Below the pieces are notes generated by a model. The model worked only from the letters and a program-made list of their open reading frames with translations. It searched no databases and was not told the origin of the DNA. The position numbers were made by a program, and so were the translations under genes. Below, in pieces: positions 4,808 through 19,700 of a stretch of 20,000 bases of DNA. The stretch comes from Piedraia hortae CBS 480.64 (lineage: Eukaryota), in NCBI GenBank assembly GCA_010093745.1, contig MU005991.1, forward strand, positions 47,728 to 67,727. Reading direction: 5' to 3'. How positions within the stretch are numbered: the stretch's first letter is position 1; each line of letters opens with the position of its first letter.

Positions 4808-6146
4808 TCAAGCTCCTTCACTCCCAAACCCCTTTGTCCAAGCTTCATTCCTCTTGAGGTCCTCGCTACTAACCGTCGGCCTTGACGCCTTGATAGCTTT
4901 GACAAAATCCTTGAGCTGTAACGGCGGTTCCAGTAGCTTATCACTGTCGACCTGTGTCCAGTCCATTTCCATCGCATCTTTATCCCCCGGAGAGCACGGG
5001 GTAAGCTTCTCCTGCCCATTAACCACAACCTGCGTAGTACATCAGCTGTGCCAACCCCAACCAAAAAACTCCACAAACCTTTTTATAATGCGTCGCCATC
5101 TGTATTTTCCTTATAGGCTGCATAAGCGCATCCTGCACCGCAATCGTAATATCCGAGCCCGAATACCCCTCCGACAACTTCGCCAGAGCCTTAAAATCTT
5201 CCGGTTTAAGCTCACACGGCGTGGTCCCCACCGCAAGTTCCAACATCCTCGTCCTGGCCGGCATATCCGGGAGGGAAATATGCACTCTCCTCTGAAACCG
5301 TCTCCTAATTGCCGCATCAAGCTGCCACGGAATATTCGTCGCCCCCAGGATCAACACACCCGTCGAATCCCTCCCCACCCCATCCATCTGCACCAACAAC
5401 TCCGTCTTAATCCTCCTTGAAGCCTCCGATTCACCCTCCCCGCGCGGCCCACAAAGCGCATCAATCTCATCAATGAACACAATACTCGGCTTATTCTCCC
5501 TCGCCATAGCAAACAACTGCTTAACCAACCTCTCACTCTCCCCCATCCACTTCGACACGAGATCCGACGACGACACACTAAAAAAGGTGCTATTCGCCTC
5601 CGTCGCAACCGCCTTCGCCAGATAACTCTTCCCCGTCCCCGGTGGCCCATAGAGGAGTATCCCCTTCCAAGGCTGTCTCTTTCCCGCAAAAAGATGCGGA
5701 AACTTCACCGGCAAAATCACAGCCTCCTTTAAGGCCTCCTTCGCCCCTTCCAAACCCGCAACATCCTCCCACTTGATATTCGGCTTATCTGTCAAAATCG
5801 CCCCAGCCAGCGCGCCCCGGAGTTTCTTATTCTCTGCGTCGTCGTCTCCTTCATTACCCCCTGTCTTCCCTCCCACAGTAGCAGCAGCAGCAGCAGGAGT
5901 TTTCTTTTTGACATCCTGCTCATGGAGATGTTGTTTAAGTTTCTCCGCGCGCTCCATGTACTCTGCCGCTTTCTGGCGAATCATTTCTTTCGATTTGGCG
6001 TTTTTTTCCCATTTCAGGGCCAGCATAAAGAGTTCAAGGGCTTGGTAGTACAGCCGGTATGCGGAAGAGTAGTCGCCGGCCGTATCGTGTTCAATGGCTT
6101 TTTTGACTTGCTCAATCGCCCGGCCGAGGAAGTCAGTGTTGGACAT
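4808..6146 (-). CDS. VPS4: AAA+ ATPase Vps4 (ESCRT-III disassembly), 429 aa; exons 6146-5079 and 5029-4808
   Basis: N-terminal MIT domain ([11 protein letters not shown]..), Walker A GPPGTGKS, Walker [19 protein letters not shown], and Vps4 C-terminus [13 protein letters not shown]. One 49-nt phase-0 intron at 5078-5030 (GTTTGT..GCTGAT..CAG) restores ATHYKK|VVVNG. Confidence 0.97.
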
Positions 6147-6352
6147 GTTTGCTGAGGAGAACTACACGCTTGCGCGTGGGTTGGGTGTTGGCGTCGTCGT
6201 TGCCGGGTTCGTCGAGACTTGCTTGATTGGGTTAGCAGGGGAGGAGTAGGGTTAGGGCAGAATGGAAATAGGTGGATAGGGTTAGGATGAGAGCGTCACA
6301 TTGCATCACGTCAGGCAGTCAGAGATGAGCTGCCGACGATTTGAAGAGGACA
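6147..6352. promoter_or_regulatory. 206-bp divergent promoter/UTR region between VPS4 and prefoldin 6
   Basis: Head-to-head start codons. Contains three GGGTTAG motifs (6229-6286) and a CRE-like TCACGTCA (6306-6313). Confidence 0.6.
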
Positions 6353-6857
6353 ATGTCGCTACAAACAAAGTCGGAGGAATTTAACACTCTGCAGAATGGT
6401 ATATAATGCTCCAGATTGAAGTGGCATGTGGTTGATGTATTTAGAACAGTCAAATCTCATTCAAGCGCGGTCCAAACTTGACAGTCAGAGACAGGAGAAT
6501 CTTTCTGTGCAGAATGTACTCATACCAACAGAGATTTGTCTCAGCTATTCTGATTTTTGAAACTTTTTGCAGGAATTCAATGGATTAAACGAAGAAGCGA
6601 AGGTATTCAAGCTCGTCGGTCCGGTGCTGTTGAAGCAGGACTTGGACGAGGCGAAGACGACGGTTAGTGGACGGTTGGAGTTTATTGGGAATGAGATGTG
6701 TGTTCAACTATTTCTTTGGGGTGGGGTGCTGATGATTGATGGCAGAAAGAGAGTCGAGAGGGAGATTGAGGGGAATAAAGAGAAGAGTGAGACTCTGAGG
6801 GGCGAGATTATGAGTTTGCAGGCTCAGCAGCAGCAATATGAGGGTGGGACGGCCTGA
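6353..6857 (+). CDS. YKE2: Prefoldin subunit 6 (Yke2/Gim1), 117 aa; exons 6353-6398, 6445-6515, 6573-6697, 6746-6857
   Basis: Spliced product MSLQTKSEEFNTLQNEQSNLIQARSKLDSQRQENLSVQNEFNGLNEEAKVFKLVGPVLLKQDLDEAKTTVSGRLEFIGNEIKRVE.. carries the beta-prefoldin signature KLVGPVLLKQ. Three GT-AG introns of 46, 57 and 48 nt; the exons sum to 354 nt. Confidence 0.93.
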
Positions 6858-6953
6858 ACAGTAACGATGAAACTATGCAGATGATGAGCTAAATTTTGTG
6901 AGGATGGGTACTTCCCCATCAACCCACAGACTCCAAACCTGATGGCAGCCTCC

Positions 6954-7230
6954 GATCGACTGATTTGGCAGGGCACTGCCTCTAGCAGCCTGCTAACAGC
7001 CCTACAGACAACCAGACCTTCTGATGCCGGTCCCTCCCATCGGCACAGGTCATTCCCAATGCCTGTATTGCTGGAGACTTCAACCTCCATCATGAAAGGT
7101 GGGAGCCAGGTGTCGCGCGCATACGAGGGTCTCACTTGGATGTATCTGCACAGCTTAACAACAATTCTTCTCATCGGTAGGACATCAGATTGATCTCGTG
7201 TTCACCAACATATCTGGAGTTACAAAGGTT
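6954..7230 (+). mobile_element. Degenerate non-LTR retrotransposon (LINE, Tad-like) APE endonuclease fragment
   Basis: Ordered motifs in shifting frames: DRLIW (6954), YRQP (7003-7014), CIAGDFNLHHERWEPG (7064-7111), SHR followed by GHQIDLVFTNI (7180-7212). These match the recalled fungal LINE endonuclease motifs NVYRxP, xAGDFNxHHxxW and THxxGxxIDLxFSN. No reverse transcriptase domain follows. Confidence 0.72.
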
Positions 7231-7411
7231 TGGAGCGACAAAATATGCTGCACCCTGCTCACCACGGACATATGTTTGGCAATCGCCATGTCTAACAACA
7301 TGGTTACACTTTACTCGATTAACAACAGCAATGCAACTGTCGGAAACTCCTATCAATATCCATAACACCATGTCCGCATCTACTAAAACCCTCCCCCGTC
7401 CCTTCTAAAAA

Positions 7412-7654
7412 TGCAGCGAATGCGAAAAAGTCAAGGAAATCGCGAATATCCCTTTCACAAAACTAGCAAGAGGAGGACAACCTGCAGCGCCCATGGTGTG
7501 CGAGCGCATCTACCTCCGATTGTCCTGGATAACTGGGACAATCTTCACGACACCTTTTTCGACTCAAAAAGAAGCCTCAAGTCAAGATATTCAGTCATCG
7601 GAGAATAATAGCCTGGAAGAAGTGGTATACCCTCCAATTGACTGCGTTGAGCTC

Positions 7655-8346: not shown

Positions 8347-11300
8347 TCATACTCCCGCTCCCTCCCGAACTTCATCCCGCCGATTAAAATCCCTATTTTC
8401 AACAGCCACGCTCCTCGTCTATCCCGTCAGTCCTGTCATCTTCTAAGATGTCAAAAAAACATACCATATGATTAACCTTCGACACACCAACCAACCTCGC
8501 AGCAAGCTCAAACATGTTATTCCGCAGCGAAATAACGATAAACTGCGCGTTTTTGGTGCGTTCTTTTATGTAAGCTGCTACGATTGATACCTGATCACGT
8601 TAGCCTAGGAGTTCCAAAAATTAAGCGGGTGGGTGGGTAAGAAGGGGGAGGGCGGGCTGTAGAAAGGTAAGGCGGTTGGCGAGCACTCGTTTAATGCGCA
8701 CTCACTCACTTCCTCCCTCCCTCCAGCCCCAGCCCAACACACTCCCTCCCCGCCGGTGCTAAAACTCACATTCCTATAATCCAACGCCGCATCAATCTCA
8801 TCCATGACATACACAGGCGTCGGCTTGAACAAATGCAGCGCAAAAACGAGCGCAAGCGAACTCAACGTCTTCTCACCGCCAGACAAATTCCCAATATTCT
8901 TCCACGACTTCTTGGGTGGCATGACGGAAAACAAAATTCCCTCCGCAAACGGATCAAGCGAATCAACGAGCTCCAACTCCGCATTCCCCCCCATCGTAAT
9001 CATCTGATACATTTCCTTTAGTTTCAGCGAAATATGGCTGAACCCTGCCATGAAGCCTTCAAGACGAAGCCGACGAAGGTCATCGAGACGACGCTTCGCA
9101 GTGTCTCGGGCGAGGAGGGCGGTGTTGAGGTCCGTGAGACGGGAGGTATGTTCGCTCACGCGGCGCTGGTATTCCGCTAGGACGGAAAGGTCGGTGGGGG
9201 AGGAAGAGAGGTGTTCTTCGAGGGTTGTGATCTCTAGTTTGAGGGAACTTTTGTTGAGGGAGGTTAATTCGTCTTTGGAAAGTTCGGGGACGGGGGATGG
9301 GAGGGAAGCTTCGCCAGTGGGGGCGTAGGTTTGTAGTGTTAACTTGGAGTGTTGGTCACGCCAGTGCGCTGAGCGCTTTGTGTTTTCGAGTAGGATGCGT
9401 TCAGATTCGGAGAGGCGGGTGCGAATTGAGAGGGTTGTGCTTCTTGCTTCGTTGAGGGAGGCGCGGAGGGTGTCGAGGGTTGATTTTAGGGCTGATAGTG
9501 AGGATTTTTTCTCTTCGAGGGTGAGAGCGGCTTCGTCGGCTTGGTCGCGAAAGTAGCGCGTGTTGGCGTTTTGCGAGGAGAGGTCGGATTCGATCTGGTC
9601 ACGCTCGGAGGAGGATTTCTCCAGCTCCACTGTCGCTTCTGCCAAGGCCTTTTCGTGCTTGGACTTGGATTTTAGGGCTTTGGTTTTGGTCACTTCGGTG
9701 GTGCTGAGGCTTTCGGTAAGGGTGGCGATTTGTTCTTTCAGAGAATCGACTTTGCTCTTCTGTGACCGTAACTTGACACCGCCAACTTCCATGATCTTGT
9801 CTTGGAGTTGTTTGATTTCCTCTTCGACTCCACCGGTTTCGGATTGGAGCTGCGAAACTTCGCTTTGCAGCTTTTCGATTTTGCCCTCTAGCTTTTCCAT
9901 TTCAGTCTTGTCGGTTTTGGAAGGCTGGGAAACGGCGCCGAGTTCTTGCATCCGTTTCTTGGCATCGGCAATGTTGCGTTCGATACTGTCCAGTTCCAGA
10001 TCGGCTTTTTGGGTCCGCGTCTCGAGCTTGGGTTGCTGCTCTTGGAGTTCGTGCAGTTGAGTCTCCAACTCGCGTTTGCTCTCTTGCAGTTCATCCAATT
10101 GCTTCTCCAGAACATGACGATCTTCGTCCATTTTGACAACTTGCTCCCTTGTGACGTCTGAAGCAAGTTTAGCCGACATGCCTCCCTTGGCCACTTTGGT
10201 TCCTCCACCGCTCATTGTTCCCGACTTGTCAATAAGCTGACCGTCCAACGTAACCACACGCCACTTCTTTGCCCCGTATGCAATACGGTTAGCCTGTTCC
10301 AGGTTTTTGGCCACCAGGGTATTCTGCAAAATACTGTAAAAAGCCGGCAGGAATCGATCATGTCTGCTCTTGATCAGATCAAACAGACGGGGCACATTCT
10401 CCGGCGTCTGAACAGCTGACAGATCCCGCTGAGGCAGCTTATCCAGCAAGATAAAATTTGCCCTCCCGAGATTGTTCTTCCGTAAGTACTCGATGCACTG
10501 CTGTCCAATCTCGACATTGTCAACCACCAAGTTGTCCAGCGAAGGACATGCCGTGGAGATAGCAACATCAAACTTTTGATCAATAGTTCCTAGGTTGCCC
10601 AATCTGCCATGGAAACCCTCAATACGACCAGACTCTTTCAGCCGAGTAAGCCCCGAGAGAACAGCACCTTGACTCTGCGCAGCAGCCAGACTAGCATGAG
10701 CTTCATCAGCCTTTTGTCTCGAATTAGACAATTTACTCTTCAACGCAGGTTCCTGAGCTGCGAGCATCTGAATCTGTTTCTTCACAGACGCCGCATTCTT
10801 AGCGACAGCCACCAACTTCTTCTTCGACTCTTCAAGCTCAGCGGAGGTAGCTTTCCGTTGTTCAACCAGACCCTCGATCTTGGCTTGGACCTCCGCAACA
10901 GCAGTAGCACCAGCGTTTTCCCTCTCGCGGAGCATGTCTAGCTCGCTCTGCGCAACGGCAATAGCAGATTGCTTCTCACTTATCTTCGCATTCCACGGTT
11001 CAAGCTGTCTCTGCTTGGCGGCAATCTTATCACTGAAACCCTGCGTCTTCCCTTTGAGCCCCTCAACAATAACACCAAGCTGCCTGTCCTCAACCGCCAT
11101 TTCCTTTTCCAACCCCTCAATCTCAGCCGTCAAGCGCACAAGATCATCACTCGCATTCTTAATCAACGTCTCCGACTCATGAATTCCAAACTTTGACGCC
11201 TCGAACGTCTTCTCCAACTTCTTGGCTTTATTTAGCAGAAATTTCTTCTTCTCCTCAAACTTGACCGTCTCCTTGTCGAGCCTAGCCATCTCTTTAAGCA

Positions 11301-12912
11301 CAGAAGCCGTCTCCTTCTCCAGACTCTGATACTCCTTCGACCCGGCATCATACAACTTCTCAAGCCTCTCCATCTCAGCCTCACTCCCACCATGCTTCTC
11401 CTCTTCCGCAACCAACTCCAGCTTAATCTGTTCAATTGCCTCAGTGGTAACCTGCATATTGTCCGCGCATTCAGCGATATACAGCTGGTATAGCGCAGAC
11501 TGTTTAAGCACAAGTTCATTCTCATCGTGAATGTACTTTAATGCCGCGTCCTTCTTGCTCTCTAGACTCGCCTTTTCCTTTTCTACATGTTGGACGCGAT
11601 TTAATTTCTCCTGACACACGTCATTGAGCGTCTCCGTCTCTGCTGCGGCTTCTTCGATGGGGGTTTTGTACTTCGACGTCCCGATAATGTCTTCTAGGTA
11701 TTCTAGTAGACCGTCGTCGTGCTCGTTTGCGGCTTTGGGTTTCATCTGGGCAATGGATTCGACTTCTCCCTGTAGGATGAGGAAGCGCTTGTGGTCGAGG
11801 TCGATGCCACGGCCTTTGAGGAGGGTTGTGACGGTTGTGAAATCGGAGGTTTTGTCATTGATGTAGTATTTGCTGCTGTTGTTTTTGAATGCGCGGCGGG
11901 AGACGACGAGTTGGGAGTTGGGGACGGGTATGCTTTCGCCGTTGGGTTGGTCCATGACTTCTTGGAAGTGGACTTCGACCTCACAGTGGTCTAGGTCGGG
12001 ATATTGGGCGGAGTTATGGATGAGAGCGGAGATTTTGCCTTGGCGCATTTTGCTTGCGCGGAAGCCGAAGACGAAGAGGAGGGAGTCGATGACGTTGCTT
12101 TTGCCGGAGCCGTTGGGTCCGACTACGGAGGAGAAGGTGGCATGGAAGGGACCGATGACTTGCCTTCCAGCGTAGGATTTGAAGTTTGAGAGGACCAGGT
12201 GGGTTATGACTAGACGGGGTCTGTTTTCTGCTGGTTCTTGGGACTGCGGGATGCCCAATGCTTTGGTCCGGACGACGATGTCCATTGGTCGTTCCATTTT
12301 TGTGGTTGTTGGATCGATTTTTTTGATTTCAGTCTTGACAATGGGTGAGCGAGCCCGCGGGGTTGGTATTCCAGCCTCGACAGCTGCCGTCTCTTCAATG
12401 GGAGGGGCGTCTTCCATTTCGACATCTTGGACTCCCGTCTGGACGTCCGTTGCGCCTACAGTAGTGTCTATCCTGACCTCCGTCATGACTGTAGCCTCCG
12501 TCTGATCCAGAACCTGCGTCTTCTCTACTCCAGTCTCTCCCTCCTCTGCCTTGCCATCCTCAGTGATTGTCGTCTCTTCAGCAGACGTCGATTGCGGCTG
12601 CTGCACTTCCTCCCTCCTCGCATTCCTCGCCAATCTCGCCGCTCTAGCCTCCTTCATCGTCCTCCTCTTAGGCGGAGCTTTCTTCTCCGGACTTTCAATC
12701 GCATGAGCCGGTTGACTGAAAATCTCTGGAGACTCAATCTTATCCGCAGCAGCAGTTGTCCTCGTTCGCCTGGTGGTATTCCTTGTTGTAGCTTTTCTCG
12801 GTGAGGATTTCACATCCTCCCTTTGGGTAGGAATTTCCGTCTCATCTTCGTCTTCAACAACTTTCCTCCGCGCCGCAACTCTCCTGGACGATCGAACTGG
12901 CGATGTTGGCAT
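8347..12912 (-). CDS. SMC4: Condensin subunit Smc4/Cut3, 1446 aa; exons 12912-8770, 8590-8465, 8418-8347
   Basis: Walker A GPNGSGKSNVIDS, Q-loop FLILQGEVESI, hinge GFHGRLGNLG..SGTMSGGG, signature LSGGEKT, Walker B VMDEIDAALD. Intron 1 8769-8591 (179 nt, GTGAGT..GCTAAC..CAG) and intron 2 8464-8419 (46 nt, GTATGT..ACTGAC..TAG) restore DYRN|VSIVAAYIKERTKNAQFIVISLRNNMFELAARLVGVSKVNHM|TRSVAVENRDF..; TGA at 8349-8347. About 230 aa of disordered N-terminus with S/T-P sites. Confidence 0.96.
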
Positions 12913-13049
12913 GACTATAGATTGCTACTGTCATCAACATCTACGATGTAAACAATGCGACCAAAAGGGTTTAGCGTGGCGCGTCTGTAAGCCAACCCAC
13001 AAAATCTGATATACAACCATAGCGTAGGAACTAAGCATATAGTAGGATA
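12913..13049. promoter_or_regulatory. 137-bp divergent promoter/UTR region between SMC4 and the uncharacterised gene
   Basis: Head-to-head ATGs at 12912(-) and 13050(+). One MCB-like core CGCGT at 12980-12984 (weak evidence). Confidence 0.55.
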
Positions 13050-14062
13050 ATGGTAAGCAGCCTATAGACTCCATAGCCCCCCCTAAGCGCATACAGACTC
13101 CGCACCGCTTTCTCACTTCCCATCCCAAACATGACACTTCACCACCCGCACCAAAGTTCCAGAAACCCTCCAACAAACGAAGCGCATCACCCCCATCAAC
13201 ACAAAATGCGCGGTTATTCCAAAAGCGAGCGGTTGAAGAGACAGTTCCGCAGCCACCACCCTTTCTCAGATCGACACAACCAAAACGACTGTCTGAGCAA
13301 TTCACTTCAACACCCAGGTTCGCAAGCAATAAGGAGGAGAAACGAGAAGTCGTAAATGCATTCCGCACATCGACTCAGGCTGAGGGTGTTGATGAAGACG
13401 CGGAAATGCTCCTAACAACCACACCCCTACACACCACCCTCCCCTTCTCCCCGAAACGACCTAGGCTGGCTTTCGAGGACGACATCTCACCCATCCACAG
13501 ATCCGTGTCTCCCACCCAAGAAACGGTCTCAGACGAACTCATCTCCCCCAAACCCTACCCCCCACAGACTCCCATCCCGTTCCACCTCCAGCCATCGCAA
13601 TCATCAAGGGCGCTATTCAAACACACCGAGTCAACCCACCCAGAACCGTCCTCGAGGGTATTGTTTAAACCACCCTCCCACCCTCCCCCTCCACCAATCA
13701 CAGACGCCTTCTCGCCCCGGAAGAGGGGCAGATTGGTGCCGGGGGGGATGGCAGCTACTGTGCAGACTTTCATCCTCGACGCACCATACCACTCTCACGA
13801 GGAGGTTGTGTTCAAAGTAAGGCAGGTGGAAAGGGGACCACCGCATTTTATTCGGACGATGGACGGGCGAGGGGTTTTGTTGGTTGCTGGGAGGGTTGAA
13901 ATTGGAGATTGGGTGGAATTAAAACCGCCAACGTGGGATGTTGAGGTTAATGGGGAGGGGTGGATTGTGGGGGTGGAGTATACTATTCAGGGGGGGAAGA
14001 TGACCATCGTGGATGGATATAGAATTCCGGAAGGACGTGAGATTCACAATGGGGAAAGATGA
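13050..14062 (+). CDS. Uncharacterised conserved-looking fungal protein, 322 aa; Pro/Ser-rich N-terminus and predicted beta-rich (OB-like) C-terminus; exons 13050-13052 and 13097-14062
   Basis: The frame of ORF 13406..14062 is open 103 codons further upstream, to 13097. ATG 13050 is followed directly by GTAAGC..CCTAAG..CAG (44-nt intron), giving M|TPHRFLTSH... Motifs QFTSTPRF, DAFSPRKRGRLVPGGMAATVQTFI and VEIGDWVELKPPTWDVEVNGEGWIVG. Confidence 0.8.
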
Positions 14063-14358
14063 TGCTTGGGATGATTTCTTACTGAGATGTGGGGGGCAGG
14101 ATGCCAAGCCGCCAAGCCACCCCACCGCAAAAAACGGGGCCAACACATCCCAACTCAAGTAAGTATACTCTAACAAAACCTCACATTGAGAAAAGAGGTC
14201 TGCCATTTGCACAACCAAACCCATCAAACTCACCAGTGCCCAACGCACCACCCATCGGTCAACAATGGAATCAAAAACATTACCTATCTAACTCCTAAAA
14301 AGCCTTGCAAAGCAGGTCTACTCCCACGCCATCCCTACTCCCCCCTTTCCTCTTCTGT

Positions 14359-17300
14359 CTACCCAGCAACCCTCTTCCTGCCCTCCCCCCACCCCACCAC
14401 AACCCCTGGCTTCGCATACGCACAGTACCTATCCCTAATCGCAACAACCTCATACGTCCCCTCCAACCCCGCCTTGACTCTAAGTATCTCCCCCTCCGAA
14501 ACCTCCTGTCTCATATCAAGCACAGCCCCCTTCTTCCCTCCCCTCTCCGTATTCCCCGATCTCGTATACACAAACTCAAACGGCGGGGTACCCGCAAACT
14601 CAAACAAAATCTCTGTTTCCCCGCCTTCATGCAGATCCACGTATCCCTCCCTCCCATGCGAGACCCTCACTGAAGGCATACCATGAATAACCCTCGAAAT
14701 ATTAACTTTCGCTTCGCAATTCGACGCTGCGTCCGCAATCGCGGTGATAGTCAATACTCCCGGCTTCTCCGCTAGTCGGCGGAACGTAGCGCCCTTCGCG
14801 ACCGCTTTCCTTTCACTATTCTGGAAGGTGTAGAAGATATTAAACGGCGCTGTGCCCGACAGGGCGAAATTTATACGTTCGCCAACGCAGTATTCCGATT
14901 TAGTGTCGAATGGTGTGATGGTAGGCGCATCGTGGACTGAGATCTGCACCCTCGACGTCGCACTATCTAAGAGTCGGCTGCAGCCGTTAGAGTCGCTTAC
15001 TCTTCGAAGCGAGAGCGACGACCTCCCCAGCTGGAGCCGACTATGCGGGATTCTAATCTCATGTTCCGTACTTGGAATATTCGGAATTCGGATCAACTCC
15101 GGCCGGCCGAGCTGGTGGTGGCGGATTTCGAGTTCGAGGGTGAATGGAGGTTGACCGTAGAGTTGGATAGGGATGACTTCTTCGCCGGAGGCTTCGTCGG
15201 TGCAGTAAGAGTATGATTTGCCGGGGTGGAGGAATGAGGCTGAGGGACGGGCATTGACGCGTTGGGTGATTTTTAAGGGGGAGAAATGCTTCGCATTGTG
15301 GTCGTAATTGGAGTCTTCGAGGGAGTCGAGGTGATAGGTGTAGAGGCCGGATTGGGCGGTGTCCATGCGGAGGGAGGCGGAGTGTAACGAGGCGCGGAGA
15401 CTGCGTTTTTTGGGAGCGATCGCTCCGCGGTCGAGTTTGGTGTGTTGCGTGTAGGAGAGTTGGAAGGGGGGTGTGCCGGTAAAGAGGACCTCGGCGCTGT
15501 CGTCCTCACCCTCGCAGATGTCGGATTTGGAGTAGGTATGGCCGCTTCGCTCGGGGAGGTCGGAGATGCGGACTGTGGGGCGGGTGATCCAGTTAATGTC
15601 GAAGTTTTGGGCGGGGGTGTCGACGATGCCCGGGCAGACGGAGTCGTGGACTTCGAGGAGTTGGTAGGTGCCCGCTTTGTCGACTCTGATGCGATGATTG
15701 GGCTGGGTGGCTTGGACGGTGTGCTCTTGACCCGTTGGGTCGGCGTATTTGATTGTCCAGGGACCCTCGCCTACCAGACGAAGCGGAAGTTCGACATTCT
15801 TGTCCTCGAGCGTGTCAATTGCCCGCTTGCCTTCGAGCTGACCGAAGCCAACCTTGGGCTTCTGATGTCGGACGTACAGTCGGCTCTGTTCTTGCAGAAA
15901 CTCGCTACAGCCCATGCCATCTGTAATGGACTTCAAGGCGAGAATGTATTCGCCGCCATCGTGCAGTGTCGGCGTATCAATCTGCACGCGAGGACTCGTC
16001 TGATTCTTCATCCTAAATTCCTCCCTCTTGCCGTTATGTATGAGCTCGTAATCTAGCGTAAACGGACCCTCACCGTGGAGGGAGACATCAAACTGGGCCG
16101 CTTCGTCAATGCAAGCAACCTTTGGATGTGAAGCACTGATAGACGCCGACGCAGCCGGCTTGACATTTTGCGTCAGCCGCTGGCCGGAAATCCTCTGTGC
16201 TTTGTAGACTGCATCGCTGACTTCGACAAAGTCGTACGTGTATTCACCCGCCTCTCTTGGTGTCAGTTCGATCTGACCACGCATGCCGTGGATCCGTTCA
16301 ATGGCACTTGTGTGGTACCGTTCGCCTTTTCTAGTCATCTGGTATTGGACATCAAACGGCGGCGTCCCAATGAGATCCAGATCAACACGAAGTCCGATAG
16401 AACTACCGGCACATTTGTCAAAAATCTCCTCTGCTGTAACCTTTAGCTGCGGCTCTGGCGGGTTCTCGATCAGACAGGCTGCCGGCTCAAGCACCTCTCC
16501 AGGGCAAAATTCCGTAGAAATGCCCGTGATGGTGTACATCCCGGCCTCGGCGACGGTGGGATTGGACTCGCCGCTCTTGATGGTAAATCGGTTGCTTTGG
16601 CCGGGTGTGCCTTTTTGATCTTTGACCGGAGTAAAGACATAGTCAATGTAATATGTCCCATCCGGCATGGCTTCACGACCGCTGGAACCGAATTCAACGG
16701 GCAGCTCAGTCGAGCGACCTTTGGCCACTTTGAGCGGGTTCTGGCCACTGCAGCCGCGGAGACTGATTAATGGACGCTCATGCACGGCAATAGACTGGTG
16801 CAGATGAGGCGCCTTGGACAAATGCCGCTCAGAATATTCGTGGTCGTGGTCAGTGTATTCGACTTTATTACCCAGGCCGTCAATGACTTCTGAGAGCGAA
16901 TACACCCAGCGTCCTGTCGTGCCTAAAGATTCACTTATGGGCACGGTAAGCTGGCGAGGTCTGACCCAATCTACCTCAATTTTCTGCGAAATCTTGACCA
17001 GAGTGTCAGTCTTCCCAAAAGGCGATGAAAAGTCATCGGGCTGAATGCTCTCGAATGTGGACTCTTGGACCTGGTGATTGACCATTCGCCTGTACTTTGC
17101 GCGCAGCGGAGGAGTTCCCGTCACCTGCAGCTCCACACTCGACAACTCTCCCTTGCACCGGTCAGCTTTTGCCTGTAAGAGACTGGCCTTTGGGCACGGA
17201 ACGACGACTGTTTGTCCTCTTCGTTTTCTGGCGACTTCCAAATTCGACTCGTCAATCACTTTAGACAGCGAATAAACACCGGGCTTCCTGACCGTATAGT

Positions 17301-18189
17301 AGAGCGTCTTGGGCTCGTTGGGCTTGTCACTGTACGTCGTCAATCTGGAAGCTTCCTTGTGCATCCTCTTAATCTGCGACTTGGAGATTGTCAGCGTCTC
17401 GTTTGCAGACGTGCCCAGATCCACGCGTTGGATTTCCATTAAAATCGGGTTAGTCGAGTTGATTGTGATGGGCAATTTGGCCTCTGGACGCGAAGAATCA
17501 AGACAAAAAGCCGCCCCGTGTGCATTCAAAACGGCGGACCCCTCAGGCAAAATGTGGATAATCTGCCGTCCCAGAATCAGCGATTCATTGAATTCAATCG
17601 TTCGCGGATTCACACGGTGTTCGTTAACCGCCAGTTCATACGCCCCCCATAAACTCCTCCCTACCAAGGCGAACCCAGCGCCGATCGGGATGGATACGCG
17701 GAACATCATGAGCGCATTGGCCACAGCATGGGCGCAGAACAGCAGAACAATCGTTGCGGAGCTCCATTCTAACCACGGAATGCGCAGTGACGGCAGACCA
17801 AACAGCCACAGGCCATCAATAGCCACCCATTTCATAAACAACCAAAGACTCTGCTCTTCCGACTCCTGCAAGTTCGAAAAATCGTAAATCTTCCACGACC
17901 ACAACGCGACCCAAATCGTGAACGCATACAACCTCTGCGTCGGGGCCTCAATCAACGACTCTGGGATATACGGTTCGTCCGGCGGCGGCAGGGGTTTCTT
18001 GTCCAACTCCGAAATATCTCTTACTTCTCTCCGTATCATCCTCCCCGATCGACTCAATCCATTGCTCCCGCCTGACCGACTCAAACCACCCGCACTCCGA
18101 TTCAGTCCCTCCCAATCTCTGTACTGTTGTCTCTGGGATCTGCTTGGAGTCGCGGGATACGCGCTTCTTAGCCGCGGCGTTCCCTCCAT
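14359..18189 (-). CDS. POM152: Nuclear pore membrane protein Pom152, 1276 aa, no intron needed
   Basis: First ATG at 18189 (the ORF track starts at an upstream TTG). MEGTPRLRSAYPATP; IEAPTQRLY; hydrophobic block WLFMKWVAIDGLWLFGLPSLRIPWLEWS; ILGRQIIHILPEGSA; repeated Ig-like luminal modules (C..G.PPF...Y...G.Y....V.D..C). Confidence 0.93.
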   Translation of the reverse strand: MEGTPRLRSAYPATPSRSQRQQYRDWEGLNRSAGGLSRSGGSNGLSRSGRMIRREVRDISELDKKPLPPPDEPYIPESLIEAPTQRLYAFTIWVALWSWKIYDFSNLQESEEQSLWLFMKWVAIDGLWLFGLPSLRIPWLEWSSATIVLLFCAHAVANALMMFRVSIPIGAGFALVGRSLWGAYELAVNEHRVNPRTIEFNESLILGRQIIHILPEGSAVLNAHGAAFCLDSSRPEAKLPITINSTNPILMEIQRVDLGTSANETLTISKSQIKRMHKEASRLTTYSDKPNEPKTLYYTVRKPGVYSLSKVIDESNLEVARKRRGQTVVVPCPKASLLQAKADRCKGELSSVELQVTGTPPLRAKYRRMVNHQVQESTFESIQPDDFSSPFGKTDTLVKISQKIEVDWVRPRQLTVPISESLGTTGRWVYSLSEVIDGLGNKVEYTDHDHEYSERHLSKAPHLHQSIAVHERPLISLRGCSGQNPLKVAKGRSTELPVEFGSSGREAMPDGTYYIDYVFTPVKDQKGTPGQSNRFTIKSGESNPTVAEAGMYTITGISTEFCPGEVLEPAACLIENPPEPQLKVTAEEIFDKCAGSSIGLRVDLDLIGTPPFDVQYQMTRKGERYHTSAIERIHGMRGQIELTPREAGEYTYDFVEVSDAVYKAQRISGQRLTQNVKPAASASISASHPKVACIDEAAQFDVSLHGEGPFTLDYELIHNGKREEFRMKNQTSPRVQIDTPTLHDGGEYILALKSITDGMGCSEFLQEQSRLYVRHQKPKVGFGQLEGKRAIDTLEDKNVELPLRLVGEGPWTIKYADPTGQEHTVQATQPNHRIRVDKAGTYQLLEVHDSVCPGIVDTPAQNFDINWITRPTVRISDLPERSGHTYSKSDICEGEDDSAEVLFTGTPPFQLSYTQHTKLDRGAIAPKKRSLRASLHSASLRMDTAQSGLYTYHLDSLEDSNYDHNAKHFSPLKITQRVNARPSASFLHPGKSYSYCTDEASGEEVIPIQLYGQPPFTLELEIRHHQLGRPELIRIPNIPSTEHEIRIPHSRLQLGRSSLSLRRVSDSNGCSRLLDSATSRVQISVHDAPTITPFDTKSEYCVGERINFALSGTAPFNIFYTFQNSERKAVAKGATFRRLAEKPGVLTITAIADAASNCEAKVNISRVIHGMPSVRVSHGREGYVDLHEGGETEILFEFAGTPPFEFVYTRSGNTERGGKKGAVLDMRQEVSEGEILRVKAGLEGTYEVVAIRDRYCAYAKPGVVVGWGEGRKRVAG

Positions 18190-18422
18190 TGCTGCCAACA
18201 CTCTCTACCAAACCCAGCGCGCTCTCAAATCCCAACGCGCCGTGCAGTTAATCTGGCGTTGTTGCTTCCCTACCCAATTGGGCGTAGCTTGTGACGTCAC
18301 ACAAACTGTAATAATTGACCCGTCCACATACAGCAACCCGTAACAATTAACCCACGTCAATCCGTAACATTACCCATCCAGCAATCAACAATGTCCCTCC
18401 CCCCAAAAAGCGCCAGCCCTCA
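18190..18422. promoter_or_regulatory. Divergent promoter POM152/UCH with a perfect ATF/CREB (CRE) palindrome
   Basis: TGTGACGTCACA 12-bp palindrome at 18290-18301 (core TGACGTCA); second palindrome CCCAATTGGG at 18273-18282. Confidence 0.6.
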
Positions 18423-19700
18423 ATGCCTCCCAAAAAACGAAAACCCTCCTCAAGCGAATATACCCACCCCTTCACCCCTTTCAACTTCCCCGGCTGGATC
18501 GAAATGGAATCCGAACCCGTCTTCTTCTCCGCAATCCTCCACGACCTTGGCGTTTGCGGCCTAAAATTTACAGAACTCTACAGTCTAGAAACCGACCATC
18601 TCCTTCCCCCCGTCTATGCACTTATATTCCTCTGTCGGTGGCGTCAGACAGACTCCCCCCGGCCTCAGGATGTTAATGATGATGATGATGATGATGATGA
18701 TGAAGGTGGTGGTCAAAATAAAATATGGTTCGCACAACAAACCCCCGAGTTCGCGTGTGCGACATTCGCGGTGCTGAATATCGTAATGAATCTTCAGGGT
18801 TTTGAGTTTGGGGAGGAGCTGGAGAGGTTTAAGGTTTTTACGGAAAATATGGGGTCGTTGGAGAGGGTTGATGCGATTGATAATTGGGAATTTGCGAAGA
18901 GAATTCATAATTCTTTTGCGAGGGGAAGGGAGGTTATGCTTGCGGATGCGCAGTACCTTCATAAATCCCGCATGATAAAACGACAGATGGCAGCGGAAAA
19001 AGCGTGTCAGACTCGTTTGAGGAAGAAACAGAAAGCGGGTGTTGGTGAGGAAAGGGAGGTGAAAACCTTCGTCAAATCCGGTAAACCTGGTGGACCTGCT
19101 TCGGCCGCTGAACCTGCTGCGTCTGCGCGTCGGTCGAAGAGGACTAAACCCAAACCTGAACTTCCTCTGGAAGAGGACGAGGGGGGTTTCCATTTTATTG
19201 CATACATGCCTATCTCTTCAGAGGTGTACATGCTCGACGGACTGCATCACTCGCCTGTTAGGCTTGGGTCGTTTGATGATAACTGGATGGCGGTAGCGCA
19301 GGAAGCGCTCAAGGGACGGATCGCGCAGTATGCGGAGGAGGATATCCAGTTTAATCTTATGGCTGTTGTTGATGATCCTTTGGTAAAAGCGGAGCAGAGG
19401 TTAGAGGGGATTGAGGCGCAGCTTAAGGAAAAACTGGGGGAGCAGTTCAAGGACGAGGAGGGGATTACAAATACAAGGGTAGAGGATTTGGAAAGCATGC
19501 CAGATGAGAAGGATGTCGTAGAAGCACTCCGCGCAGAGAGAGAGGAGCTTCTTAAACTGATTGATGAGTTGAAGAGGGAGGAGAGGGAAGAGATGATCAA
19601 AGTGAGGAATCGGAGACACGATTTTGAGGGGTTCGTAAGGATTTGGTTACGTGTCCTGGCGGAGAATGGAACGTTGGGGGAGTTGGTTAGGTGGCGTTAG
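18423..19700 (+). CDS. Ubiquitin C-terminal hydrolase (peptidase C12), UCH37/BAP1-like, 425 aa
   Basis: GWIEMESEP, VYALIFL, oxyanion Q and catalytic C in WFAQQTPEFACAT, HNSFAR, catalytic H in FHFIAY, D in LDGL, IQFNLMAV, coiled coil, and a C-terminal UCH37-like tail RRHDFEGFV..LAENGTL. N-terminal PPKKRK is NLS-like. Confidence 0.92.
   Translation: MPPKKRKPSSSEYTHPFTPFNFPGWIEMESEPVFFSAILHDLGVCGLKFTELYSLETDHLLPPVYALIFLCRWRQTDSPRPQDVNDDDDDDDDEGGGQNKIWFAQQTPEFACATFAVLNIVMNLQGFEFGEELERFKVFTENMGSLERVDAIDNWEFAKRIHNSFARGREVMLADAQYLHKSRMIKRQMAAEKACQTRLRKKQKAGVGEEREVKTFVKSGKPGGPASAAEPAASARRSKRTKPKPELPLEEDEGGFHFIAYMPISSEVYMLDGLHHSPVRLGSFDDNWMAVAQEALKGRIAQYAEEDIQFNLMAVVDDPLVKAEQRLEGIEAQLKEKLGEQFKDEEGITNTRVEDLESMPDEKDVVEALRAEREELLKLIDELKREEREEMIKVRNRRHDFEGFVRIWLRVLAENGTLGELVRWR
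18678..18701 (+). repeat. (GAT)8 coding microsatellite giving Asp8
   Basis: Eight perfect GAT units in frame within the UCH gene. Confidence 0.95.

Follow-up and report, generated by a model that had tools for sequence, protein, structure and literature searches.

INTRODUCTION

The metazoan repair scaffold SPIDR (KIAA0146; DUF4502, PF14950, plus DUF4503, PF14951) begins with a disordered N-terminus, which is followed by a central globular domain termed an “inferred OB-fold” (oligonucleotide/oligosaccharide-binding fold) that was weakly detectable even by the authors describing it (E = 0.015), and it ends with three OB folds that resemble those of RPA1, carry a zinc ribbon, and bind single-stranded DNA (ssDNA) (PMC11377751). 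Its reported length is 915 amino acids (aa; construct 623-915). Residues 1-515 mediate the interaction with SWS1-SWSAP1 and are the RAD51-binding region (PMC6821187). An intrinsically disordered N-terminus with one or several C-terminal OB folds is the common layout of SPIDR, SHLD2, HROB, and SPATA22 (PMC11377751). Fungal Shu complexes consist of Sws1/Shu2 and Rad51 paralogues, and the available part of the source on these complexes describes no SPIDR-like subunit (PMC8275761); the available parts of the literature consulted on SPIDR do not treat this protein beyond human and mouse. The subject of this study is a gene in a 20,000-nt stretch of DNA from the fungus Piedraia hortae CBS 480.64 (contig MU005991.1, positions 47,728 to 67,727), called “the window” here, which encodes a protein of 322 aa with a single predicted OB fold.

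A first-pass annotation of this gene, made from the sequence alone, had proposed a candidate fungal SPIDR-like recombination protein that shares a 137-bp promoter with the condensin subunit SMC4; SPIDR is described there as a scaffold for SWS1-SWSAP1, RAD51, and BLM. The results presented below are best explained by an expressed gene that belongs to a new family of OB-fold proteins and may encode a SPIDR-related nuclear adaptor regulated by cyclin-dependent kinases (CDKs). The probability of this explanation as a whole is estimated at roughly 0.5.

RESULTS

A family of fungal proteins with an invariant motif

When 1.84 billion representative proteins were scanned exhaustively with HMMER, 34 proteins other than the query matched at E ≤ 1e-3; the top match had an E value of 1.0e-09 and 41% identity over residues 155-296. 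With a profile of the family, 142 proteins out of 7,999 scored candidates were found at E ≤ 1e-3, and a word-indexed search with the single protein matched only the protein itself. The protein of the window is an outlier of the family, with 25 to 45% identity to the other members. Named members come from Dothideomycetes (e.g., Friedmanniomyces and Venturia), with the addition of one Candelariomycete, Candelina. Genomes carrying the family include those of Aureobasidium and Zasmidium. No Pfam domain is recorded for any of the 120 listed family proteins, and the source names of the listed members are all “hypothetical,” “uncharacterized,” or “unnamed.” The matches listed in a literature search did not include a paper on a fungal SPIDR, which is weak evidence of absence. 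As a family, these OB proteins are new, being without a Pfam model, a name, or a paper; their fold and their class of architecture are already known.

Three entries among the family members stand out. In P0139 from Cercospora kikuchii (886 aa), the family domain is fused to a serine carboxypeptidase (PF00450); this entry most likely arose from the merging of two gene models and does not reflect a true fusion protein. P0103 and P0130 are labelled Quercus suber in the source database, while every other named member is fungal, and both probably stem from fungal DNA that contaminated a plant assembly.

Conservation was evaluated in two family alignments of 35 and 137 sequences. The strongest block has the consensus EPLPEAFSPHRRGQKFVPGGMAAxVQQWV and is followed by a beta-rich domain that ends with GIRAPTWxVE..G..WxVGVDWxxL. 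Residues F206, S207, P208, and A220 of this block are invariant in all 137 rows, and the residue at position +3 of the invariant FSP is R or K in 136 of them. Other family motifs are QFAxTPRF, an acidic D-E-M-L-D patch, and RPAFLRPS. The consensus of a PCNA-interacting protein (PIP) box is Qxx[ILM]xx[FY][FY]; since QFAxTPRF does not fit it, a PIP-box protein was dropped as a candidate.

The full consensus of a CDK site is S/T-P-x-K/R. Three sites with this consensus, T2-P-H-R, S119-P-K-R, and S207-P-R-K, were identified in the window protein and are conserved across the family, the median number of full sites per member being three. At the N-terminal site, with the family consensus SPHRFL, 67 rows reach the motif, and the counts are 60 for S, 59 for P, and 61 for R. 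The SPKR site shows S in 121 of 129 rows, K in 129 of 132, and R in 128 of 132. The third site lies within the motif of highest conservation, at the barrel entrance. The several S/T-P sites that the annotation had put forward as fitting a role in the cell cycle or in DNA maintenance are thus indeed conserved, three of them as full CDK-consensus sites kept across the family. The KRRR cluster of the family, which overlaps the second site, looks like a classical nuclear localization signal (NLS).

A disordered N-terminus and a single OB fold

In the full-length structural model, the 10-residue blocks of residues 1-190 reach mean predicted local distance difference test (pLDDT) values of 43 to 61, no secondary structure appears before residue 219, and the blocks of the barrel are at 89 to 94. 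An AlphaFold2 prediction for residues 185-322 with the 137-row alignment gave a mean pLDDT of 75.6, with the barrel blocks at 87 to 93. The N-terminal 190 residues are accordingly modeled as disordered, and the C-terminal part as a closed five-stranded beta-barrel with OB topology. The PDB neighbors listed for this model were all OB folds. Foldseek against the PDB returned nothing at E ≤ 1e-3; its best rows were the IFI16 HIN domain and STN1, both with 6.3e-3, and the chain 4gop_B of an RPA heterotrimer with 7.9e-3. Both structural features assigned to the protein beforehand, a disordered N-terminus and one C-terminal OB fold, are found in these models. The short motifs from which the likeness to SPIDR had originally been read, RKRGRLVPGGMAATV, VVFKVRQV, GVLL, GDWVELKPPTWDV, and WIVGVEY, are present in frame and in this order at residues 204-301, which correspond to positions 13703-13995 of the window.

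The tail following the barrel has a median length of 1 residue in the family and exceeds 10 residues in just 6 of the 137 rows; in the window protein it has 23 residues, and the transcript contig has no intron in the region 13991-14059, which encodes this tail. The median isoelectric point (pI) of the barrel is 6.06, with a negative net charge in 78 of 137 members, and the copy in the window has a pI of 4.98. Basic residues are located in the motif preceding the barrel.

OB folds of the RPA32, STN1, Ten1, RPA14, or RMI2 type form pairs by way of a helix that follows strand 5 at the C-terminus. A Ten1/RMI2-type subunit was dropped as a candidate because no C-terminal helix is present. A CDK inhibitor of the Sic1/Rum1 type was dropped as well because the confident beta-barrel is not a kinase-inhibitory domain.

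Relationship to SPIDR

Residues 196-302 were used for a structure search in the ESM Atlas. The first three of the 10 rows obtained were unnamed clusters from Ascomycota. Row 4, the first one with a Pfam family, was a chordate cluster named “DNA repair-scaffolding protein,” that is, SPIDR, in which 100% of the members contain PF14951 and 98% contain PF14950. The alignment lies in the DUF4502 part, covers 98 residues over the range 196-302, and has a template modeling (TM) score by query of 0.65, so that this row combines the highest TM score by query with the longest alignment of all 10 rows. Generic OB folds in the same search reached TM scores of 0.49 to 0.53 with 66 to 81 aligned residues, mostly starting from about residue 230. 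The SPIDR alignment includes the pre-OB motif and the subsequent helix, which the generic OB rows do not reach. Since the rare SPIDR family had been named from the sequence alone, the Atlas row and this naming together give about even odds of remote homology. A true remote homology to the central domain of SPIDR is plausible on the basis of these predicted structures, if unproven.

A number of results weigh against a relationship to SPIDR. Searches with hmmscan for PF14950 and PF14951 gave no match for three fragments of the window protein at E ≤ 10, for any of the 35 members of the smaller alignment at E ≤ 1, or for any of the 137 members of the larger one at E ≤ 10. Neither phmmer nor the family profile matched a PDB sequence, the best E value of 0.49 being noise. 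The SPIDR row of the Atlas search is below the bar of the tool for naming a family, both sides of this comparison are predicted models, the model of the window protein in the Atlas itself reaches a mean pLDDT of 0.50, and unrelated OB folds can also yield a TM score of 0.65 across some 100 residues. When the whole protein was used for the Atlas structure search, the 10 rows obtained had TM scores of 0.20 to 0.26 and did not include SPIDR. The three-OB block of DUF4503 is absent, with one barrel only and no match to PF14951 in 137 members, and the only longer form approaching the length of SPIDR was the 886-aa Cercospora fusion model, which is weak evidence on this point. Finally, the slightly acidic barrel is an indirect hint against strong ssDNA binding. 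The feature scores of the Atlas pointed to unnamed fungal clusters only, with values of 0.91 to 0.92 for the whole protein and 0.84 for the part. The lists of PDB folds contained no SPIDR chain, but a solved SPIDR structure did not surface in the literature search either, so that this absence says nothing about SPIDR.

Because the DUF4502 profile match and the three OB folds at the C-terminus are both missing, the protein cannot be filed as a member of the SPIDR family. The SPIDR-like identity as first proposed is partly supported: the expected DUF4502 profile match is lacking, and the structural likeness to DUF4502 is a lead.

Alternatively, the family may be composed of lineage-restricted OB-fold proteins unrelated to SPIDR, that is, fast-evolving nuclear factors such as a small component (Stn1, Ten1, or RPA32 type) of a complex acting at telomeres, in replication, or in the handling of ssDNA, or an adaptor of another pathway. 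The likeness to SPIDR would then be due to the shared fold and the N-terminal helix only. The chance that this alternative is correct is somewhat short of even. It has to account for an Atlas search that places DUF4502 of SPIDR first among the rows with a Pfam family, with the top TM score and the most extended alignment, and for the unlikely coincidence that the same rare family had been named beforehand. Moreover, partners of the Stn1/Ten1/RPA32/RMI2 type pair by a helix, while the proteins described here typically stop at the last strand, with a median tail of a single residue.

Linkage to SMC4 and the presumed promoter element

The distance between the ATG codons of SMC4 and the OB-protein gene is exactly 137 bp, as first annotated, and the arrangement of both genes is head to head. 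This arrangement and a promoter element resembling the MluI cell cycle box (MCB) had been taken as clues to a function in the cell cycle or in DNA maintenance. Neither clue withstood a comparison with other loci and with the base composition of the window. The comparison covered 26 metagenome loci coding for relatives, some of which are close kin of each other; at least 2.5 kb of the upstream flank was covered in eight of them and at least 1.5 kb of the downstream flank in nine. In none of the 26 loci was SMC4 or POM152 (tblastn, E ≤ 1e-5) found beside the homologue. The neighbors vary from locus to locus and include a TauD dioxygenase, a PAN-domain protein, an aspartyl protease, a protein kinase, and MRC1. 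The head-to-head arrangement is consequently real in the window but not conserved. Regarding the promoter element, the 137-bp spacer contains no full ACGCGT. The tetranucleotide CGCG occurs in 71 copies in the 20-kb window, so that about 0.5 copies are expected per 137 bp, and the MCB-like core in the spacer is at chance level.

A factor linked to condensin or transcribed in the cell cycle, tied to SMC4 by a shared bidirectional promoter of 137 bp and an MCB-type element, is very improbable in view of these results. The head-to-head pair exists and both genes are part of the same transcript-derived contig, and the conserved CDK-consensus sites would fit a cell cycle control of the protein; but the related loci with their differing neighbors, none of them SMC4 or POM152, and a spacer with one CGCGT, no ACGCGT, and hence an about random content of such elements speak against this tie, which as a conserved linkage is largely refuted. 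With an SMC4 linkage that is not conserved, an MCB core at chance level, and housekeeping neighbors, the genomic context adds nothing to the function of the protein.

In four of the related loci, an open reading frame (ORF) of about 710 to 800 aa without a Pfam match is located about 1 kb downstream of the OB-family gene on the same strand (L001:7722-8951, L007:7523-9925, L009:7536-9764, and L016:1394-3532). The four loci form two pairs of close relatives with 36 to 38% identity between the pairs, and the ORF is absent from the window. It could represent local synteny or a partner.

Gene model, transcripts, and neighboring genes

The gene at 13050-14062 (+) encodes the 322-aa protein, and the open frame spans 13046-14062 (+). 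A protein database contains one identical product of 322 aa, which corresponds to an M followed by the translation of 13097-14059. Contigs from one public run containing this DNA, run X1, were placed on the whole window; the kind of this run, RNA, was only guessed, and it is not on record as RNA. Besides the intron joint 13051/13096 (“skips 44,” GT..AG, cut +1), the contigs contain six more joints of canonical splice type, distributed over both strands, and a loose end with poly(A). The canonical joints and the poly(A) end indicate that the X1 contigs derive from RNA. From position 13096 to 18282, a contig is colinear with the window. The OB-protein gene is real and transcribed. The assumption that it does not encode a functional protein, being a spurious ORF or an untranslated region or antisense transcript of the neighboring genes, draws on the low-complexity, proline- and serine-rich composition of the first 190 residues and on the word-indexed search that returned only the protein itself, but it is already refuted, with a negligible residual probability, by the canonical intron spliced in sense orientation, by the 34 relatives at E ≤ 1e-3 with their invariant motifs, and by a barrel confidently folded by AlphaFold2.

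The coordinates of the features are compiled in Table 1.

Table 1. Features of the OB-protein gene and of its immediate surroundings in the window
Feature	Position	Strand	Evidence or remark
Condensin SMC4, first large exon, head to head with the gene	8605..12912	−	SMC_N, 2.4e-54; SMC_hinge, 5.1e-26 (Pfam)
ATG-to-ATG spacer of 137 bp, SMC4 (12912, −) to OB-protein gene (13050, +)	12913..13049		Covered by transcript contigs
Single CGCGT, “MCB-like core” (GCGCGT, 5/6 of ACGCGT)	12980..12984		Within the 137-bp spacer
Exon 1, start codon only	13050..13052	+	322-aa database protein; splice joint
Intron of 44 nt, GTAAGC ... CTAAG ... CAG, directly after the ATG	13053..13096	+	RNA-derived contigs
Exon 2, residues 2-322 and TGA stop codon	13097..14062	+	Contig without a further intron
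N-terminal TPHRFL (family consensus SPHRFL), full CDK-consensus site S/T-P-x-R, then R-x-L	13097..13114	+	Alignment
LPFSPKRPRL (family consensus LPxSPKRRRL), NLS-like basic cluster overlapping CDK-consensus site S-P-K-R	13439..13468	+	
Most conserved stretch: RPxFL motif, PLPxAF-SP-[HR]-[RK]-RG-x-K-F-x-PGG-[ML]-A (third CDK-consensus site), helix 219-228	13655..13777	+	
Predicted OB-fold barrel, residues 238-299; strands 238-246, 251-255, 260-263, 273-285, 288-299	13805..13990	+	AlphaFold2, block pLDDT 87-94
C-terminal tail of 23 residues	13991..14059	+	pLDDT 41-50; most relatives without it
Nucleoporin POM152, tail to tail with the gene	14359..18201	−	Five POM152 Pfam domains, best E 5.3e-79

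On the minus strand, the SMC4 frame has its first ATG at position 12912. Two 3' introns of SMC4 were found at 8419-8464 and 8589-8767 (CT..AC joints 8418/8465 and 8588/8768), so that the ORF at 8605-12912 is the first large exon and the end of its translation is intron read-through. One contig of 10,341 nt bridges SMC4 (−), the OB-protein gene (+), and POM152 (−) across positions 8768-18282 of the window. This indicates that neighboring transcripts overlap or abut, with divergent 5' ends and convergent 3' ends; the stop codons of the convergent pair, the OB-protein gene and POM152, are 297 bp apart. The other genes of the window have housekeeping functions. These are a Vps4-like ATPase with MIT and AAA domains at 5019-6161 (−; AAA, 1e-42; MIT, 5.5e-24; intron joint 5026/5076) and a ubiquitin C-terminal hydrolase at 18351-19700 (+; Peptidase_C12, 5.1e-48). 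Additionally, a spliced plus-strand transcript with the GT..AG joints 6397/6444, 6515/6573, and 6697/6746 is located at 6300-7650 and contains no ORF of at least 150 aa.

DISCUSSION

Proposed function

The protein may be nuclear, imported by means of the KRRR cluster, and could be regulated by CDKs at the three conserved consensus sites. The invariant pre-OB motif PLPxAFSP..RG.KF.PGG[ML]A and the helix lead into the five-stranded OB barrel, and motif and barrel together may form a module serving as a docking unit for a partner protein, perhaps with weak ssDNA binding. Because the barrel is slightly acidic on average, protein docking, or no more than weak ssDNA binding, is favored over a classical role like that of a single-stranded DNA-binding protein.

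This module might be remotely related to the OB-like domain at the center of metazoan SPIDR, which belongs to the SWS1-SWSAP1- and RAD51-binding half of that protein. The location of the central domain within residues 1-515, the segment responsible for these interactions, gives such a kinship functional content. The most likely role on this basis would be that of an adaptor in recombination or in repair during replication stress, in a form with one OB fold and without the three C-terminal ssDNA-binding OB folds of SPIDR. The most likely partners, by analogy to the N-terminal half of SPIDR, would be the complex of Sws1 and Rad51 paralogues plus Rad51 itself, as candidates derived only from the structural lead. 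A rather doubtful extension of this proposal is that the whole family constitutes a counterpart, in fungi, to that half of SPIDR with which the Shu complex and RAD51 interact.

Should the family nevertheless turn out to be this counterpart, the Sws1-Rad51-paralogue complexes of Pezizomycotina would contain an unrecognized scaffold subunit with one OB fold and under CDK regulation, which would add a CDK-dependent cell cycle input to the regulation of Rad51 in filamentous fungi. Scaffolds of the SPIDR type would be older than the split between animals and fungi, and the three OB folds that bind ssDNA would either have disappeared in the fungi or never have been added there. A compact relative that consists of nothing but a disordered part plus the first OB-like domain would reveal the smallest conserved module of SPIDR and provide a genetically tractable system for the least understood domain of SPIDR. 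If the link to SPIDR fails, a conserved and expressed OB-fold family without a Pfam model but with the invariant FSP..RG..PGG[ML]A motif is left, which merits a family definition.

Comparison with known systems

HIN-200 proteins (p202, p204, IFI16, AIM2, and MNDA) carry tandem OB pairs, act in vertebrate innate immunity, and bind double-stranded DNA. Only one barrel aligns with the fungal protein, at 10 to 18% identity; neither taxonomy nor sequence connects the two, and the likeness concerns the fold only. In contrast to RPA32, STN1, Ten1, and RPA14, the OB family ends at strand 5, has no sequence match to these proteins, and possesses a long N-terminus rich in CDK sites that is not theirs.

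HROB, SPATA22, and SHLD2 were absent from the fold searches, and no member of either alignment (35 and 137 sequences) had a convincing match to any Pfam family. The fungal protein has the same layout as these three, with a disordered N-terminus and a C-terminal OB fold; they bind ssDNA, however, whereas the fungal barrel is on average acidic.

Compared to SPIDR, the fungal protein has about one-third of the length and is devoid of the zinc ribbon and of the three RPA1-like OB folds at the C-terminus, and its family occurs in fungi, not in metazoa, with a SPIDR Pfam match in 0 of 137 members. Common to both proteins is a long disordered N-terminus that precedes an OB-like domain.
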